Source of the DNA: a virus
Virus record (IMG/VR): IMGVR_UViG_3300027825_000082
Direction: 5' to 3' (one strand)
Length of the DNA: 15,631 nt
Shown in pieces: positions 20 to 5,422 of the stretch. A model generated the notes under the pieces. It was not told the origin of the DNA and did not search any database. It saw only the letters and a list, made by a program, of their open reading frames with translations. Positions within the stretch are counted from its first letter, which is position 1, and each line of letters starts with the position of its first letter. The translations under genes and the position numbers were made by a program.

Positions 20-93
20 TGGCTGGCACACAGGGATTCGAACCCCGATACCTTGCTCCAGAGGCAAGGGTCCTGCCGTTGAACGATGTGCCA
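20..93 (-). tRNA. tRNA-Gln (anticodon CTG), 74 nt, CCA encoded
   Basis: Manual cloverleaf: 7-bp acceptor tggcaca/tgtgcca, D stem gttc/ggac, AC stem cttgc/gcaag with loop ctCTGga, T arm cgggg-ttcgaat-ccctg, discriminator G, CCA. Confidence 0.8.
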
Positions 94-108
94 ATCTCGG
101 TTAGATGC

Positions 109-312
109 TCACTTGGCGATGTCCTTGATCTCGGACATCAGCCTGACGATCTCCGCGTCGCCGGACGCCTGCTTCACGGCCGCCTTGCCGAGCTCCTCGG
201 GCGTGGCGGTGAACGCGCTCTGCGCGGCCTCGCGCTGCCCCGGTGCCTGCATCTGCTCAAGCATCTCGTCGAACACGCCCGTCAGGTCCATGTCGAACAC
301 GTTGCACCTCAT
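109..312 (-). CDS. hypothetical small protein (67 aa) between two tRNA genes
   Basis: ATG-initiated ORF with strongly GC-rich third codon positions like the rest of the operon; no recognisable domain. Confidence 0.5.
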   Translation of the reverse strand: MRCNVFDMDLTGVFDEMLEQMQAPGQREAAQSAFTATPEELGKAAVKQASGDAEIVRLMSEIKDIAK

Positions 313-316
313 GATC

Positions 317-401
317 TGGTAGCCCCGGTAGGATTCGAACCTACGATGGATTTCTCCGCTGGTTTAGGAAACCAGTGCCTTGTCCACTAGACTACGGGGC
401 C
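317..401 (-). tRNA. atypical tRNA, anticodon CCT (Arg-type) with a 14-nt variable region, 85 nt
   Basis: Acceptor ggccccg/cggggct, D stem gtct/aggc, perfect AC stem ctggt/accag loop ttCCTaa, variable region cggagaaatccatc (gga-GAAA-tcc mini-hairpin), T arm gtagg-ttcgaat-cctac, CCA. Confidence 0.6.
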
Positions 402-406
402 AAACT

Positions 407-580
407 TTAATCCCTGTCGCGTGCGCTCTCGCGCCGCTTCTTCAGGTGGGCCGTCCACGGCTGCGGCCTTCCCGCGCCGTCTATCCATCCCCACGCGACC
501 AACCTGTCGAACAGCTCGTGCGTCTGCTTGTCGCCCGCGCTGCTGTAGATGCCTAGCCTCTTGATGTCTTGGATGTCCAT
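407..580 (-). CDS. hypothetical small protein (57 aa)
   Basis: ATG ORF (MDIQDIKRLGIYSSAGDKQTHELFDRLVAWGWIDG...) below the ORF-track size cutoff; very high GC3; weak SD. Confidence 0.4.
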   Translation of the reverse strand: MDIQDIKRLGIYSSAGDKQTHELFDRLVAWGWIDGAGRPQPWTAHLKKRRESARDRD

Positions 581-703
581 AGAAGCATCATAGCACCGGA
601 AAAACTAAACTGGTAGTCCCTGACCGTGTCGGTCGGCGCATCCGGGACCAGATGGTGAAGGGTTCCTTTTTATGAGAGGCGTCTACCCTTCGAACTTTCC
701 CTC

Positions 704-1249
704 TTACTTGTCCAGCGTGACGTTCCAGTAGAGCCACGACTCCCACTGCTTCCACTCCGGGCGCATCTTGTGGATGTGGAGCTTGAAGTTGTACTTGGGG
801 TCGCTGGCCTTCGGCTCGACAGGCTGCTTGAGGAGGTGCATGCCCGCCTCTGCGGGGGTCATGCCGCTCTTCTTCTTGTTGCAGCGCAGGCAAGCCAGGA
901 CCAGGTTCGTCCAGCTCGACACTCCGCCCTGGCAGCGCGGGACCACGTGGTCCAGCGTGTACTCGGACGTGTGCAGAACGCGTGCGCAGTACTGGCACTC
1001 CCCGTTGTCGCGGACGTAAACGTTGCGGCGCGAGAAGGGCACGGCCATGCGCTTGCGGCGGACCCAGGCGTTGCGGACCACGATCACGCGGGGCATCCCG
1101 TAGGAGAAGCTCGGCGTGTTGAGCCTGCGGCCGTCCTCGTCCTCCTTGACGACCTGCGCTCGGCCCTCGTAGAGAAGCTTGGCCGCCCGCTTCCAGGTGC
1201 AGAAGCTCTGGGGCTGCCAGTTCATGTCTAGGACCAGGATTTCGGACAT
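704..1249 (-). CDS. HNH homing-type endonuclease (181 aa) inserted inside the tRNA array
   Basis: Motifs RDNGECQYCA ... LDHVVPRCQGG ... NLVLACLRCN (CxxC / H / N / CxxC, HNH fold); start at internal ATG 1249 preceded by AGAGGAG SD 6 nt upstream; the track ORF 704..1267 has an N-terminal extension. Confidence 0.85.
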   Translation of the reverse strand: MSEILVLDMNWQPQSFCTWKRAAKLLYEGRAQVVKEDEDGRRLNTPSFSYGMPRVIVVRNAWVRRKRMAVPFSRRNVYVRDNGECQYCARVLHTSEYTLDHVVPRCQGGVSSWTNLVLACLRCNKKKSGMTPAEAGMHLLKQPVEPKASDPKYNFKLHIHKMRPEWKQWESWLYWNVTLDK

Positions 1250-1287
1250 AAATGTCTCCTCTCTCAAGGGTTTGCGAAGCCAAAATT

Positions 1288-1363
1288 TGGTGCACCGGGC
1301 GGGAGTCGAACCCGCAACCTGTCGATTAAGAGTCGAATGCTCTGCCAGTTGAGCTACCGATGC
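1288..1363 (-). tRNA. tRNA-Lys (anticodon CTT), 76 nt
   Basis: Acceptor gcatcgg/ccggtgc (one G-U), D arm gctc-aactggca-gagc, AC loop ctCTTaa, T arm gcggg-ttcgact-cccgc, discriminator A, CCA. Confidence 0.8.
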
Positions 1364-1389
1364 GCTGCTACTACAATACCACGAAAATT

Positions 1390-1468
1390 TGGTCGGCGCG
1401 GAGGGATTCGAACCCCCATCTTACCGGGTAAGAGCCGGATATGTTGAACCGTTAAACACCACGCGCCG
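1390..1468 (-). tRNA. tRNA-Lys-like (anticodon CTT), 79 nt with an 11-nt D loop
   Basis: Perfect acceptor cggcgcg/cgcgccg, D stem gtgt/acat, AC stem 4 bp (ccgg/ccgg) plus a U-U mismatch, loop ctCTTac, T arm ggggg-ttcgaat-ccctc, CCA. Confidence 0.6.
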
Positions 1469-1473
1469 AAACT

Positions 1474-1560
1474 TGGCTGGGACGAGAGGACTCGAACCTC
1501 TAGTGAGCGTAGCTCGGGAGGATCAGAACCTCCTGGGGTTGCCAATTTTCCTACGTCCCA
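1474..1560 (-). tRNA. atypical tRNA-like, anticodon CTG (Gln-type) with a 15-nt variable arm, 87 nt
   Basis: Perfect acceptor tgggacg/cgtccca, perfect AC stem ggagg/cctcc loop ttCTGat, variable arm c-GAGC-tac-GCTC-act hairpin, T arm agagg-ttcgagt-cctct, CCA; the D arm is weak (2-3 bp). Confidence 0.5.
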
Positions 1561-1640
1561 ACAACCGAAACTTGTGGGCGGGCGCTTTGGTCATCGCCCT
1601 CCTATGAACGAAGTTGCCTTCTACGTCCCCGCCCAAAACT

Positions 1641-1726
1641 TGGCTCAGGTGGTGGGATTCGAACCCACATGTCCTTTCGGAGCCGGGTTAACAGCCCGGT
1701 GCAGCGACCGTTCATGCGTCACCTGA
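1641..1726 (-). tRNA. atypical tRNA, anticodon GTT (Asn-type) with a 14-nt variable region, 86 nt
   Basis: Perfect acceptor tcaggtg/cacctga, 3-bp D stem gca/tgc with 11-nt loop, perfect AC stem ccggg/cccgg loop ctGTTaa, variable ctccgaaaggacat (tcc-GAAA-gga), T arm gtggg-ttcgaat-cccac, CCA. Confidence 0.55.
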
Positions 1727-1796
1727 ACAACGCGGTTTCCAATGTTTATCGGCTTGCGCCGGGATGGCCCGAAGGCTCAAACATCCACCGCGAAAC

Positions 1797-1871
1797 TGGC
1801 TGGGACGGGAGGACTCGAACCTCCATCTTTCACCTTAACAGGGTGACAACTTGCCGTTAGCCCACATCCCA
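1797..1871 (-). tRNA. tRNA-Asn (anticodon GTT), 75 nt
   Basis: Acceptor tgggatg/cgtccca, AC stem tcacc/ggtga loop ctGTTaa, T arm ggagg-ttcgagt-cctcc, CCA; D stem has two G-U pairs. Confidence 0.75.
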
Positions 1872-1877
1872 AAAGTC

Positions 1878-1954
1878 TGGTACCCAAGGAGGGATTCGAA
1901 CCCCCGACCTCCGCGTTCGTAGCGCGTTGCTCTAGTCCGCTGAGCTACTCAGGC
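1878..1954 (-). tRNA. tRNA-Arg (anticodon ACG), 77 nt
   Basis: Classic D arm tagctcagcggactagagca, AC loop ctACGaa, T arm ggggg-ttcgaat-ccctc, CCA; acceptor stem has three G-U pairs. Confidence 0.75.
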
Positions 1955-1964
1955 ACTTCTAAAA

Positions 1965-2039
1965 TGGCTGGGACGGTAGGACTCGAACCTACAACCATAC
2001 GGTTAACAGCCGTACGCTCTGCCATTGAGCTACATCCCA
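1965..2039 (-). tRNA. tRNA-Asn (anticodon GTT), 75 nt, fully canonical
   Basis: Acceptor tgggatg/cgtccca, D arm gctc-aatggca-gagc, AC stem tacgg/ccgta loop ctGTTaa, T arm gtagg-ttcgagt-cctac, CCA. Confidence 0.85.
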
Positions 2040-2044
2040 AAACC

Positions 2045-2119
2045 TGGAGGTCCCGGAGGGATTCGAACCCTCACTGTTCCGCGTTCGAAGCGCGGTCGAC
2101 TATCGTTGCCGACGGAACC
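2045..2119 (-). tRNA. tRNA-Arg (anticodon TCG), 75 nt
   Basis: Acceptor ggttccg/cgggacc (one G-U), AC stem ccgcg/cgcgg loop ctTCGaa, T arm gaggg-ttcgaat-ccctc, discriminator T, CCA; D arm short and irregular. Confidence 0.65.
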
Positions 2120-2125
2120 GAAATC

Positions 2126-2202
2126 TGGTGCTCGCGGGCGGATTCGAACCGCCAACCTCAGCCTTCGCAGGGCTGCGCTCTGATCCGTTGAGCTACGCGA
2201 GC
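2126..2202 (-). tRNA. tRNA-Arg (anticodon GCG), 77 nt
   Basis: Perfect acceptor gctcgcg/cgcgagc, D arm gctc-aacggatca-gagc, AC stem cagcc/ggctg loop ctGCGaa, T arm ggcgg-ttcgaat-ccgcc, CCA. Confidence 0.8.
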
Positions 2203-2205
2203 AAA

Positions 2206-2397
2206 CTAAATCTTGTACGCCACGCCGTCCTGGCCCGTGTACGTGCGGCTGACGCCGAAAATCTCCCGAGCCAGATTCCCGCGTTCGACGCAAAAGGCTG
2301 GAGCGCCCTCCCACCTTGAGCATACCGTCCCCGGCGAGGCGTTGCACCTTGGGTTAGGGCAACGAACGTCGAACGCGGGATGGTTGGACTCGACCAT
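2206..2397 (-). CDS. hypothetical Cys-containing small protein (63 aa) between tRNA genes
   Basis: ATG ORF from the track; moderate GC3 (about 70%); CPNPRC...C...C pattern; no clear SD. Confidence 0.35.
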   Translation of the reverse strand: MVESNHPAFDVRCPNPRCNASPGTVCSRWEGAPAFCVERGNLAREIFGVSRTYTGQDGVAYKI

Positions 2398-2402
2398 ATC
2401 TT

Positions 2403-2479
2403 TGGTGCCCGTGGAGGGATTCGAACCCCCGGCCGCTGCCTTCGGAGGGCAGTGCTCTGTTCCGCTGAGCTACGCGGGC
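2403..2479 (-). tRNA. tRNA-Arg (anticodon CCG), 77 nt
   Basis: Acceptor gcccgcg/cacgggc (one C-A mismatch), D arm gctc-agcggaaca-gagc, AC stem ctgcc/ggcag loop ctCCGaa, T arm ggggg-ttcgaat-ccctc, CCA. Confidence 0.75.
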
Positions 2480-2628
2480 ATCTGTTTCTCAAACGGCGCG
2501 ATCTGCTTCCCCAGCTTCGCCGCCTGCTTCGCCAAGGCCTGCTTCATGGTTCCTGGCGGAAGGTCGCTCGCGATCCTTTTCAGGTTCGCTATCTGCGCCT
2601 TCGTCTTCAGAATGTCCATCTTCTCCAT
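2470..2628 (-). CDS. hypothetical Lys-rich small protein (52 aa); its 3' end overlaps tRNA-Arg(CCG) by 10 nt
   Basis: ATG ORF (MEKMDILKTKAQIANLKRIASDLPPGTMKQ...) below the track cutoff; high GC3; GAGG SD 6 nt upstream; the overlap with a tRNA lowers confidence. Confidence 0.3.
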   Translation of the reverse strand: MEKMDILKTKAQIANLKRIASDLPPGTMKQALAKQAAKLGKQIAPFEKQMPA

Positions 2629-2648
2629 GTCAAGCCTCTCTCTAAATC

Positions 2649-2728
2649 TGGTGGACCCGGCGGGACTCGAACCCGCGTCTCCGTATGCCCGAAGGCTCCC
2701 GGCGACTCTGCCCCTGAGCTACGGCCCC
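2649..2728 (-). tRNA. tRNA-like element (80 nt) with an aberrant anticodon arm; possible pseudo-tRNA (GCC anticodon if folded canonically)
   Basis: Good acceptor (ggggccg/cgggtcc, one mismatch), D arm gctc-aggggca-gagt, T arm gcggg-ttcgagt-cccgc, CCA; the central region gccgggaGCCttcgggc has an internal G-G mismatch and forms a gcc-UUCG-ggc tetraloop instead of a 7-nt U33-containing loop. Confidence 0.45.
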
Positions 2729-2734
2729 GAACTT

Positions 2735-2810
2735 TGGGGTGAGCGAGGGGATTCGAACCCCCGACTACTGGCTCCACAGGCCAGCGTTCTGCCGCTGAAC
2801 TACGCTCACC
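2735..2810 (-). tRNA. tRNA-His (anticodon GTG) with encoded G-1, 75+1 nt
   Basis: Perfect acceptor gtgagcg/cgctcac, extra 5' G pairing with the C73 discriminator (His identity element), AC stem ctggc/gccag loop ctGTGga, T arm ggggg-ttcgaat-cccct, CCA. Confidence 0.8.
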
Positions 2811-2825
2811 ACAGCTACCCCTAAT

Positions 2826-2904
2826 TGGGGTGACGAGTGGGGGTCGAACCCACCAGAACTGGTTTCACAGACCAGTGCAACATCCCCGGAGTTGCCATCG
2901 TCAC
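2826..2904 (-). tRNA. second GTG-anticodon tRNA (His-type) without G-1, 79 nt with an 11-nt D loop
   Basis: Perfect acceptor gtgacga/tcgtcac, D stem gcaa/ttgc, perfect AC stem ctggt/accag loop ctGTGaa, T arm gtggg-ttcgacc-cccac, discriminator C, CCA; the nucleotide 5' of +1 is T, not G. Confidence 0.65.
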
Positions 2905-2943
2905 AATCTGCGCGGCGGCCGAATCACGCCACGACTTAAGCTT

Positions 2944-3019
2944 TGGCAGGGGCGGAGGGACTCGAACCCCCGTCTTACGGTTTTGGAGACCGACGTCGTA
3001 GCCGCTAGACCACGCCCCT
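2944..3019 (-). tRNA. tRNA-Trp (anticodon CCA), 76 nt
   Basis: Perfect acceptor aggggcg/cgcccct, AC stem cggt/accg loop ctCCAaa, T arm ggggg-ttcgagt-ccctc, discriminator G, CCA. Confidence 0.75.
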
Positions 3020-3035
3020 GTATGTCAAAAACCCT

Positions 3036-3068
3036 GTAAAAATGCAAAACCCGCCAGTCTTTGGCGGG
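3036..3068 (-). terminator. intrinsic (rho-independent) terminator, minus strand
   Basis: Minus-strand 7-bp GC stem CCCGCCA-aagac-TGGCGGG followed directly by TTTTGCATTTTT; the plus-strand side has only a weak T tract. Confidence 0.75.
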
Positions 3069-3240
3069 TCTGTTGATCTCGATCTTGGGAGGGTTCCTAG
3101 TTAGTTTCCCTCGTTGACAGAGAACAGACCTGCGCCGAACCAGCGGTTATTCCGCTGGCGGACATCTCCCTGATGCTTTCGGGAGACGATCGCGTTGGCT
3201 TTCCTTGAGGTCATAGGTGTTCCCTGTTCCGTACTCTCAC

Positions 3241-3270
3241 ATAATACTCCGGAAGCGGCAAAATTGTCCA
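3241..3270 (-). promoter_or_regulatory. candidate sigma70-like promoter (TGGACA - 18 nt - TATTAT) reading leftward
   Basis: Hexamers read on the minus strand, just downstream of the last operon gene's stop (3277) and about 190 nt upstream of the terminator at 3036..3068; host sigma factor unknown. Confidence 0.3.
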
Positions 3271-3276
3271 GAGTTG

Positions 3277-3435
3277 TCAGAATTTATTTTTTCGGCCCCT
3301 GTAGTTCTCGCAGGACGGGACGGGGCACTCGCCCTCCTTGCAGCGCCACATCACGTACGCGCCCCGCAGCCAGCCCGCCCAGTAGGAGACGAAAATGACC
3401 GAGAACATCACGCCGTAGGTGGCCAGGAACCTCAT
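3277..3435 (-). CDS. small membrane protein (52 aa, one TM helix)
   Basis: MRFLATYGVMFSVIFVSYWAGWL hydrophobic helix then CKEGECPVPSC; ATG overlaps the upstream stop as ATGA; the track ORF 3277..3807 has a spurious Arg/Pro-rich N-terminal extension. Confidence 0.7.
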   Translation of the reverse strand: MRFLATYGVMFSVIFVSYWAGWLRGAYVMWRCKEGECPVPSCENYRGRKNKF

Positions 3436-5141: not shown

Positions 5142-5347
5142 GCCAGCACCGCGCCAGGGGTCTTCGCCCTGCGCCCGTGCTCGCCGTTGACATGCTCGTT
5201 CATTTTCGCATCCCTGTCCAGCTCGTCGGGCGACTCGAACTCCATGGTCCAGCCGCACTGGGGGCAGACGAACCCGTAGTAGGTGGTGGCCGTGCTACAG
5301 TCCTCGAACGTGTAGCTGCCGTCCTCTTTGCTGTACACGCTGCCCAT
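5138..5347 (-). CDS. hypothetical protein (69 aa) with a CPQCGW motif
   Basis: ATG preceded by GGAGGGGG SD with 5-nt spacer; the track lists a TTG start 24 nt upstream. Confidence 0.65.
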   Translation of the reverse strand: MGSVYSKEDGSYTFEDCSTATTYYGFVCPQCGWTMEFESPDELDRDAKMNEHVNGEHGRRAKTPGAVLA

Positions 5348-5422
5348 CAGCGCCCCCTCCGCTTGAGCCAAAGTCCGGCGAGGAACACCAGGAAAAAGAA
5401 GAACGCCTGCGCGAGCATGACC

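Follow-up and report, generated by a model that had tools for sequence, protein, structure and literature searches.

A conserved promoter-to-terminator unit with a short open reading frame at the head of a phage tRNA array, a candidate leader-peptide attenuator

The DNA analyzed here, IMG/VR virus record IMGVR_UViG_3300027825_000082, is a stretch of 15,631 nucleotides (nt), and "the window" refers to this whole 15.6-kb stretch. The window has a G+C content of 64%, all of its genes are on the minus strand, and its source is an uncultured large phage; contigs near-identical to it are present in the ENA, JGI, and Logan metagenomes. An array of transfer RNA (tRNA) genes occupies one end of the window, and immediately upstream of its first gene, tRNA-Trp, lies a leader unit in which a promoter, a short open reading frame (ORF), and an intrinsic terminator follow one another. 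The features of this unit and of the adjoining tRNA gene are the following.

3241..3270, minus strand: sigma-70-like promoter identified by a consensus scan, with the −35 element TGGACA at 3270..3265, an 18-nt spacer, and the −10 element TATTAT at 3246..3241.
3218..3227, minus strand: region 1, the 5′ strand of helix P1 (ACAGGGAACA), purine-rich and weakly Shine-Dalgarno-like, which pairs with UGUUCUCUGU of region 2.
3101..3214, minus strand: leader ORF of 37 codons plus TAA, encoding MTSRKANAIVSRKHQGDVRQRNNRWFGAGLFSVNEGN; its AUG lies within helices P1/P2.
3163..3188, minus strand: hairpin A, stem CGUCUCCC/GGGAGAUG with the invariant loop GAAAGCAUCA, containing codons CGA AAG CAU CAG GGA.
3140..3158, minus strand: hairpin B, CCAGCGG-AAUAA-CCGCUGG, containing codons CAG CGG AAU AAC CGC UGG.
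3117..3136, minus strand: region 2 (GGCGCAGGUCUGUUCUCUGU), the 3′ strand of P1/P2 and the 5′ strand of a candidate antiterminator, encoding G-A-G-L-F-S-V.
3089..3112, minus strand: hairpin 3, GAGGG...CCCUC, with the ORF stop codon (3103..3101) and a UAG in the +1 frame in its loop.
3063..3074, minus strand: region 3 (AACAGACCCGCC), serving both as 5′ half of the terminator stem and as 3′ strand of the candidate antiterminator.
3038..3071, minus strand: intrinsic terminator, stem AGACCCGCCA/UGGCGGGUUU followed by UUUUGCAUUUUU, identified by a scan.
2944..3019, minus strand: tRNA-Trp, the first tRNA of the array (ARAGORN).

An earlier note on this DNA, made from the letters alone, had described the TGGACA-18-TATTAT promoter, the terminator, three hairpins, and a 37-amino-acid ORF. 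Promoter (3241..3270) and terminator (3071..3038) were both found again, the three hairpins (tctccc/gggaga, 3188..3163; ccagcgg/ccgctgg, 3158..3140; gaggg/ccctc, 3112..3089) were all part of the minimum free energy (MFE) fold, and the ORF (3101..3214) was present with the same sequence. The G+C content at third codon positions (GC3) of the ORF, which the note had called only moderate, was approximately 0.69, compared with approximately 0.95 in the phage's real genes. The terminator does lie just before the first tRNA, at a spacing of approximately 18 nt (from the end of the T tract near 3038 to 3019; the note gave 16 nt).

The promoter matched the sigma-70 consensus at 10 of 12 positions and was the only promoter-like match of this kind on the coding strand of the window; transcription would start near G3234. 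The scan alone was not significant, because two sigma-70-like matches were observed on both strands of the 15.6 kb when 1.4 were expected by chance. The terminator stem (3071..3047) comprised 10 base pairs (bp), six of them G-C, with a 5-nt loop and the downstream tail TTTTGCATTTTT. Its hairpin energy was −16.5 kcal/mol, and it was the only strong terminator-like site on the minus strand of the window.

Relatives of the unit were reached through two small upstream genes, one metagenome pattern scan, and an exhaustive HMMER search with the peptide. The leader unit was recovered in seven further lineages besides the window, all metagenomic, so that eight lineages are represented by DNA; a ninth variant, P0020, consists of a called 39-amino-acid peptide only. 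In L013, L014, L015, and L019, the neighboring proteins were approximately 80% identical to those of the window, and in L018 the neighboring protein was 54% identical. The L016/L017 lineage (G+C 54%) had approximately 73% DNA identity and no 52-amino-acid gene, and L022 (G+C 53%) had an RlaP protein 41% identical to that of the window. The order of promoter, ORF, and terminator was the same in all seven. Wherever a contig reached tRNA genes (L001/L002, L013, L015, L019, L016/L017, and L022), the unit headed the tRNA array, and the arrays behind it were alike in their peculiar composition (Trp, His, Arg isoacceptors, Asn, Gln, and Lys).

The promoter (86–100% identity to the window), codons 1–32 of the ORF (80–97%), and the terminator (92–98%) were more conserved than the neighboring protein genes (flanking coding DNA, 70–87%); identity in the hairpin 3 region ranged from 66 to 100%. 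The blocks CCCGAAAGCAUCAGGG, CAGCGGAAUAACCGCUGGUU, and GUCUGUUCU were essentially invariant in all eight lineages, the core blocks being identical even in L022, and the unit contained the invariant 22-mer CAGCGGAATAACCGCTGGTTCG. These blocks were as constrained as the most conserved parts of tRNA-Trp and exceeded most of that gene, whose acceptor and D arms differed substantially between the window and L017. Because the blocks outlast most of the adjacent tRNA-Trp, recent transfer is not the explanation for their conservation. It is this conservation across lineages, and not the scans, that makes the unit more than a chance assembly, and the earlier proposal of a discrete element bracketed by a promoter and a terminator is supported.

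The promoter pattern occurred once per locus, each time at the leader unit. Over the promoter segment including the spacer, identity to the window was 100% in L013, L014, and L018, 91% in L015 and L019, and 86% in L017 (−10 element, TATACT). L022 retained TATTAT with an upstream TG (extended −10) and had no −35 element. The terminator stem and U tract were retained in all full-length lineages, with a C-G to U-A exchange in the stem of L022. No conserved promoter was found between the terminator and the first tRNA in the lineage alignment; the tRNAs therefore depend on read-through, and the control by read-through that the earlier note had suggested is favored. A TTGACA just before tRNA-Trp was considered as a tRNA promoter and rejected: it has no usable −10 element and is not conserved in L017 or L019.

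The ATG of the leader ORF was invariant, and the frame was open in all eight lineages with DNA. Insertions and deletions kept the frame (+6 nt in L017 and +3 nt in L022), and P0018 and P0020 showed further in-frame length changes. The ratio of nonsynonymous to synonymous substitution rates (dN/dS, NG86) for the three most divergent pairs was 0.17, 0.47, and 0.33 in the ATG frame, compared with 1.2–3.7 in the other two frames, and substitutions were enriched at third codon positions (19 of 39, P = 0.03). Eighteen residues of the peptide were invariant across seven variants, with the conserved motifs RKHQG, QRNNRWF, and GLF; the last quarter was not conserved, and its frame shifted between lineages. 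Two homologous 39-amino-acid ORFs, both metagenomic, had been called as genes by independent pipelines, and these were the only two true homologs among 1.84 billion representative proteins (exhaustive HMMER search). Given this coding-type pattern, the leader ORF may be translated, although its weak Shine-Dalgarno sequence and atypical GC3 speak against it. A second candidate, a 22-amino-acid ORF at 3097..3165, was rejected because it is not conserved, its ATG being lost in L014, L015, L017, and L018.

The unit folded with an MFE of −76.5 kcal/mol (z = −4.7), and none of 200 shuffled sequences was as stable. In hairpin A, two stem pairs showed two-sided compensatory changes around a constant loop: C-G to G-C in L017, and C-G to U-A and U-A to G-C in L022. 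Its covariation score was 0.095, compared with 0.053 after shuffling, and 2 of 500 shuffles reached the observed score. The six core pairs and the loop of hairpin B (CAGCGG-AAUAA-CCGCUG) were invariant in all eight lineages, L022 included, and only the outermost C-G pair differed (U-G in L017); because the core never varies, hairpin B is uninformative for covariation. The stem of hairpin 3 took five forms across lineages (GAGGG/CCCUC, GGAGU/ACUCC, GGGAC/GUCCU, GGGAG/CUCCC, and GGAGC/GCUCC), and despite these unrelated sequences it folded at −8 to −11 kcal/mol in every lineage, with the in-frame stop codon of the ORF always in the loop. Covariation over the whole structure, calculated on a MAFFT alignment, did not reach significance, since the core offers no variation and the variable parts were misaligned. 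Counts for each helix and folds for each lineage took its place. In the window and in L013, L015, L017, L019, and L022 alike, the hairpin 3 loop always holds a pair of stop codons separated by 4–5 nt, the first of them in the ORF frame and the other in the +1 frame (UAAcUAG, for instance), and such paired stops could catch ribosomes that shift frame at hungry codons.

Three helices of the unit are mutually exclusive and have comparable energies. As the pairing partner of region 2, region 1 extends over 3227..3208, comprising the purine-rich stretch and the AUG, and this P1 pairing is present in the MFE fold of the window. In the six full-length lineages, the energies were −10 to −20 kcal/mol for the helix formed by regions 1 and 2 (1:2), −17 to −22.5 kcal/mol for 2:3, and −12.6 to −17.5 kcal/mol for the terminator (3:4). 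The 2:3 duplex had an energy of −19.0 kcal/mol, compared with −11.8 ± 2.2 kcal/mol when the upstream sequence was shuffled, and 0.8% of shuffles equaled it. A G(A/G)GAAC-type motif, complementary to GUUCUC, was kept in all lineages. GUCUGUUCU of region 2 was invariant in all eight, the preceding GG being altered only in L019 (AG), and the region 3 block A(A/G)CAGACCC was invariant in the seven lineages whose contigs reach that far. The partner segments of these helices are nearly invariant and so provide conservation and no covariation. Pairing of the 3′ half of the terminator with CCGCCAG of hairpin B was considered and rejected, since it is missing in L017.

Folding predicted that the AUG region is approximately 60–70% unpaired before region 2 is transcribed and sequestered afterward. 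We then used a ribosome-footprint model in which helices were barred from enclosing the ribosome, applied to five lineages, which gave largely similar results. With the A site at codons 2–25, the 2:3 helix mostly formed and the terminator disappeared or shrank to 5 bp; exceptions in the window were codons 10, 11, 14, and 20–22, which still yielded the full terminator. Once the A site had reached codon 26, and from there up to the stop codon, all five lineages formed the full terminator.

The array provides 11 anticodon species reading 14 codons. Cognate codons for these tRNAs made up 17 of the 36 leader codons (14–21 across lineages), compared with a proportion of 0.287 in the phage's own genes; the enrichment gave a binomial P = 0.014 and P = 0.005 against dinucleotide shuffles, both values being post hoc because the codon match was spotted after the ORF had been translated. 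All 11 anticodon species had cognate codons in the leader, which was true of 0.5% of 36-codon windows in phage genes, and no such window combined this full coverage with the observed count. Among codons invariant in seven lineages, 10 of 15 belonged to the cognate set in the ATG frame, compared with 3 of 18 and 0 of 15 in the other two frames. The four Arg codons of the leader (CGA, CGC, CGG, and AGG) correspond to different Arg isoacceptors in the array. Synonymous change within the cognate set was limited to AAC/AAU and CGC/CGU, which keep the same tRNA, and several nonsynonymous changes or insertions brought codons into it (Ser to Asn, Lys to Asn, Asp to His/Asn, Val to Asn, and an added Asn).

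The array itself contains, in addition to its tRNA genes, three small protein genes. These features, together with the other mapped genes around the unit, are listed here.

20..3019, minus strand: tRNA array of 16 genes with three small embedded protein genes (ARAGORN).
2470-2628, minus strand: 52-amino-acid ORF inside the array, with a good Shine-Dalgarno sequence, conserved in L017 at approximately 2322-2470.
2206-2397, minus strand: 63-amino-acid ORF inside the array, with a weak match to a phage zinc finger.
704-1267, minus strand: 187-amino-acid HNH endonuclease inside the array (Pfam HNH, 8.8e-13).
1474-1560, 2826-2904, 317-401, and 1641-1726 of the window, minus strand, and 1389-1479 of L017: tRNAs that are unusual or missed by Rfam.
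3277-3432, minus strand: predicted 51-amino-acid membrane micro-protein (MRFLATYGVMFSVIFVSYWAGWL…CPVPSC…), ending 6 nt before the −35 element.
10478..12991, minus strand: MVP homolog (Pfam MVP_shoulder, 1.6e-25), approximately 7 kb upstream of the leader unit on the same strand.

The tRNAs are Trp-CCA, His-GTG (two copies), Gly-GCC, Arg-CCG/GCG/TCG/ACG/CCT, Asn-GTT (three copies), Gln-CTG (two copies), and Lys-CTT (two copies). ARAGORN called 16 tRNAs in the window and the Rfam tRNA model 14 at threshold, the two that Rfam misses being a Gln at 1474-1560 and the second His at 2826-2904. Several tRNAs (Arg-CCT, Gln, and Asn, and Trp in L017) are 85–91 nt long with extra-long variable regions, which is unusual for these identities. 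The array of the window is probably complete, because the homologous arrays of L017 and L016 have Gln-CTG as their last gene, followed by 3 kb without tRNAs. With protein genes embedded in it, the array transcript is a mixed tRNA-mRNA polycistron; since these small protein genes are real, array transcripts are translated anyway, which is consistent with a translated leader. In the L016/L017 lineage, a 174-amino-acid truncated histidyl-tRNA-synthetase catalytic core (L017 1598-2122, plus strand; Pfam tRNA-synt_His, 2.4e-16) sits between tRNA-Trp and tRNA-His. Nothing corresponds to it in the window, and it may act as a HisZ-like protein or a decoy beside its own tRNA.

The 51-amino-acid micro-protein was found in six lineages and is missing from L017, where the promoter directly follows a 77-amino-acid gene. 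Other products of the window are a Band-7 protein, the RlaP nucleotidyltransferase, and HNH endonucleases. The order MVP, Band-7, two small ORFs, and RlaP is common to the window (8114-12991) and L018 (1-3020), with 84–90% amino acid identity. Within the phage collection, MVP had only three relatives, in uncultured megaphages of 0.46–0.74 Mb (41% identity). Of this gene order, L022 keeps only RlaP (5293-6252, 41% amino acid identity), which shows that the MVP module is separable from the tRNA module. The L022 unit is flanked by approximately 400–580 nt of apparently non-coding DNA (10190-10588 and 9415-9990), and the opposite strand of its downstream flank reads like a remnant of an endonuclease VII/HNH-type gene (…DHSHTTGAFRGTLCRTCNLGIG…), which suggests a homing-endonuclease insertion between the L022 leader and the first tRNA.

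Searches for known families returned the tRNAs and little else. Rfam at the gathering score found only tRNAs in the window, and Rfam 15 at E ≤ 10 over 2950..3350 gave rnk_pseudo as its best non-tRNA hit (19.7 bits compared with a gathering score of 55), covering the terminator only; no T-box, riboswitch, or leader family matched at this threshold. ARAGORN found no transfer-messenger RNA in the unit. By blastn against 50,697 phage records, tRNA-Trp alone matched, and tblastn of the upstream 103-amino-acid ORF against the phage collection gave no match. The unit was not found by DNA and protein pattern scans and a peptide-profile scan of IMG/VR, nor by pattern scans of GTDB genomes, the latter indicating that there is no prophage or host copy. 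Contigs with homologs of the 170-amino-acid upstream protein ended before the unit. The ORF product had no match in PHROGs, NCBIfam, or Pfam at E ≤ 10, and full-text literature searches turned up no tRNA operon under the control of a leader peptide. Resemblances to boxA/boxB and to T-boxes, judged by eye, were dropped as unsupported.

What the sequence comparisons show is the anatomy and conservation of the unit, its coding-type substitutions, the competition between its helices, and the match of leader codons to array tRNAs; translation of the ORF, regulation at the terminator, and the direction of the switch are computational inferences. The earlier note had offered a small RNA (sRNA) or a mini-ORF as alternatives, and each half found support, the ORF in the coding-type substitutions and the RNA in the conserved hairpins and competing helices; the choice between them is probably a false one, and the combination of a coding-type ATG frame with conserved hairpins and competing helices looks like a leader-peptide attenuator. 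We regard it as likely that the unit acts in cis as leader and attenuator of the array, whatever its sensor. The more specific reading that we prefer, to which we give slightly less than an even chance, is that of a ribosome-mediated attenuator at the head of the array that senses the supply of the tRNAs it controls. A codon-sampling leader peptide in closed-loop control of the phage tRNA array, in which a stall alone allows read-through, is a more tentative proposal.

In such an attenuator, host RNA polymerase would initiate at approximately 3234 and produce a 197-nt leader. Without a ribosome, region 1, which holds the weak Shine-Dalgarno sequence and the AUG, would pair with region 2, and regions 3 and 4 would form the terminator; termination 18 nt before tRNA-Trp would release a stable, highly folded 197-nt RNA. 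A ribosome loading during transcription would melt helix 1:2, and if it stalled within codons 2–25 it would free region 2 for region 3. This stall zone is dense in codons (AGG, AAC, CGA, AAG, CAU, CAG, CGC, CGG, AAU, and UGG) for which the array encodes the Arg, Asn, Lys, His, Gln, and Trp tRNAs. The 2:3 helix would consume the 5′ half of the terminator stem, and polymerase would read into the array. Under fast decoding, the ribosome would cover region 2 up to the stop codon in hairpin 3, 2:3 pairing would be blocked, and the terminator would form. Because the set codons are read by the downstream tRNAs, the arrangement would constitute a feedback loop on tRNA supply, in which a shortage of cognate tRNAs, for example through host anticodon nucleases, would turn on the phage's replacement tRNAs. 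Overlapping demands of codon identity, stem pairing, and competing helices would explain why the core is invariant at the nucleotide level.

A number of observations weigh against this ribosome-mediated reading. Predicted Shine-Dalgarno pairing is weak (−3 to −5 kcal/mol compared with a median of −7.3 kcal/mol in phage genes), and the Shine-Dalgarno-like motif sits anywhere from 0 to 4 nt from the AUG, a variability more in keeping with a helix strand than with a ribosome-binding site. To these are added the low GC3 of the ORF, its omission by most gene callers, with a complete gene call in only two assemblies and a partial JGI call at the end of L018, and the post hoc nature of the codon match. 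Nor is that match strict: L017 has lost AGG despite encoding tRNA-Arg-CCT, and it retains GGC and GGU though it has no tRNA-Gly-GCC; GGA, UUC, CUG, and GCC are invariant yet outside the cognate set. No position of the core varies, not even the third positions that could change while keeping the same tRNA (CAU and AAU), and this may point to an RNA-level partner instead of decoding. The 2:3 helix is already present in the ribosome-free MFE folds of L017, L019, and L022, and in L022 the first tRNA lies approximately 400 nt beyond the terminator, with the antisense endonuclease remnant in between. When the footprint was simply masked in an equilibrium fold, the lineages disagreed (termination throughout in L013, mostly antitermination in L017); the proposed direction of the switch therefore rests on kinetic assumptions.

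Several of these points would be met by an attenuator that works without translation, in which the junction of P1/P2, hairpin A, and hairpin B senses a ligand, a protein, or a tRNA and the ORF is incidental: a bound factor would stabilize P1 and cause termination, and in its absence 2:3 pairing would allow read-through. A three-way junction closed by P1/P2, with region 2 common to 1:2 and 2:3 and the terminator following, does resemble an OFF riboswitch, and neither the loops GAAAGCAUCA and AAUAA nor the hairpin B core vary, even at third codon positions, between lineages whose proteins are 41% identical. The variable P1 5′ strand and hairpin 3 recall the drifting expression platform of a conserved aptamer, and the weak Shine-Dalgarno sequence and low GC3 agree with an untranslated RNA. 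Nevertheless, dN/dS is below 1 in the ATG frame only, the indels are in frame, the stop codon is always in the hairpin 3 loop, and the enrichment in cognate codons is confined to one frame; moreover, no riboswitch, T-box, or leader family matched at E ≤ 10, and the sequence suggests no ligand. We consider this alternative unlikely. A stand-alone gene for a stable sRNA, acting in trans or structurally, with a leaky terminator that lets the tRNAs be made, is in our view slightly less likely still. It would account for the very stable fold (z = −4.7), the extreme nucleotide conservation, and the unit's own promoter and terminator, and the terminated product would indeed be a compact 197-nt RNA with a protective 3′ hairpin, but it leaves unexplained the coding-type substitutions, the in-frame indels, the codon match, the missing promoter of the array, and the complementarity of region 2 to both region 1 and the terminator 5′ half, both invariant; no target or partner can be named.

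The conserved peptide could instead be the functional product, a basic micropeptide of 37–40 amino acids that binds RNA or ribosomes or arrests as a nascent chain, with the terminator before the array fortuitous. The eighteen invariant residues across seven variants speak for such a product, as do dN/dS below 1 and a gene call in two assemblies, and T2, V10, F26, L30, and F31 are invariant outside the cognate set, which a pure codon sensor does not need. Against this, the C-terminal quarter is unconserved and shifts frame from lineage to lineage, the core shows no synonymous variation, which indicates a constraint beyond the protein, and the codon usage is foreign to the genome, with a weak Shine-Dalgarno sequence; the peptide belongs to no Pfam, NCBIfam, or PHROGs family, and the competing-helix anatomy is left unexplained. 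We therefore hold a micropeptide to be improbable. The earlier note had also raised the idea of a vault-RNA-like sRNA packaged by or associated with the phage's MVP homolog, which is encoded approximately 7 kb upstream on the same strand; the order MVP, Band-7, RlaP, and unit recurs in L018. The idea fared badly. No Rfam family, vault RNA and Y RNA included, resembles the unit, and L022 keeps unit and array with no MVP or Band-7 homolog in the 10 kb upstream. The megaphages with the closest MVP homologs in the phage collection (LR756500 and LR756501) are tRNA-free within 20 kb of them, a copy of the unit not having been specifically searched for there. The invariable partner of the unit is the tRNA array and not MVP, and we regard a vault-RNA role as extremely improbable.

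Phage tRNA genes are now thought to replace host tRNAs destroyed by defense nucleases (PMC10264068, PMC11555353), and RlaP-type RNA-repair-associated genes near the array fit a phage countering tRNA-targeting defenses (PMC12776372, PMC7824862). If the ribosome-mediated reading is true, the array would be the first tRNA operon known to be under ribosome-mediated attenuation, and the unit would be a phage sensor of host tRNA depletion, such as that caused by anticodon-nuclease defenses, answered by replacement tRNAs. Leader-peptide attenuation would then extend to tRNA genes and to viruses, and a compact, portable part of less than 200 nt that reports tRNA depletion would be available. A short ORF and a terminator at the head of a tRNA array also provide a search image for other large phages. 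To our knowledge, the control of expression of phage tRNA arrays is essentially undescribed.

Leader-peptide attenuation has been known for fifty years in amino-acid operons. The unit shares with the enterobacterial leaders trpL, hisL, leuL, thrL, ilvL/ivbL, and pheL a promoter-proximal short ORF followed by an intrinsic terminator directly before the regulated genes, the exclusive helices 1:2 (protector), 2:3 (antiterminator), and 3:4 (terminator), and an ORF with a surplus of codons reporting on the supply of the operon's product. In length and multivalency the ORF is like the ilv leaders (32 codons), and its use of genome-rare codons recalls leuL, which uses rare CUA codons. Unlike these leaders, which govern biosynthetic enzymes or synthetases, the unit precedes tRNAs, so that the signal would be tRNA supply itself and not amino-acid supply. 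It is phage-encoded, and its regulatory codons span seven amino acids and 11 anticodons, whereas theirs are a run for one or two. Its start codon lies inside 1:2, and its ORF crosses region 2 to a stop codon in a hairpin loop; its Shine-Dalgarno sequence is weak, and it has no sequence similarity to any known leader.

T-box leaders and terminator riboswitches have in common with the unit a structured 5′ sensor domain, a choice between antiterminator and terminator, and a link to tRNA status. However, the unit matched no T-box or riboswitch model (E ≤ 10), has no evident specifier loop or T-box bulge, and carries a conserved ORF with a coding signature; T-boxes, in addition, govern synthetase, transporter, and biosynthesis genes and not tRNA genes. 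Even if translation is irrelevant, the unit is an RNA element without a described family, with conserved blocks and an antiterminator/terminator switch. The closest precedent for an sRNA is in phage T4, whose tRNA cluster encodes the stable RNAs species 1 and 2 (rnaC/rnaD), of unknown function. Like the unit, these are structured phage RNAs of 100–200 nt joined to and co-transcribed with a tRNA cluster, but they are processed from a tRNA precursor and have no ORF, promoter-terminator bracket, or antiterminator anatomy; no sequence similarity was detectable, the phage collection matching the tRNA part only. The putL/putR RNAs of HK022 and EAR, like the unit, place two adjacent conserved stem-loops between a promoter (in HK022, that of a phage) and a terminator that is to be read through. 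The put RNAs act without translation, make polymerase resistant to all downstream terminators, and have no alternative helix consuming the terminator, whereas the unit has a region 2 that specifically complements the terminator's 5′ half, and its hairpins form part of a conserved ORF.

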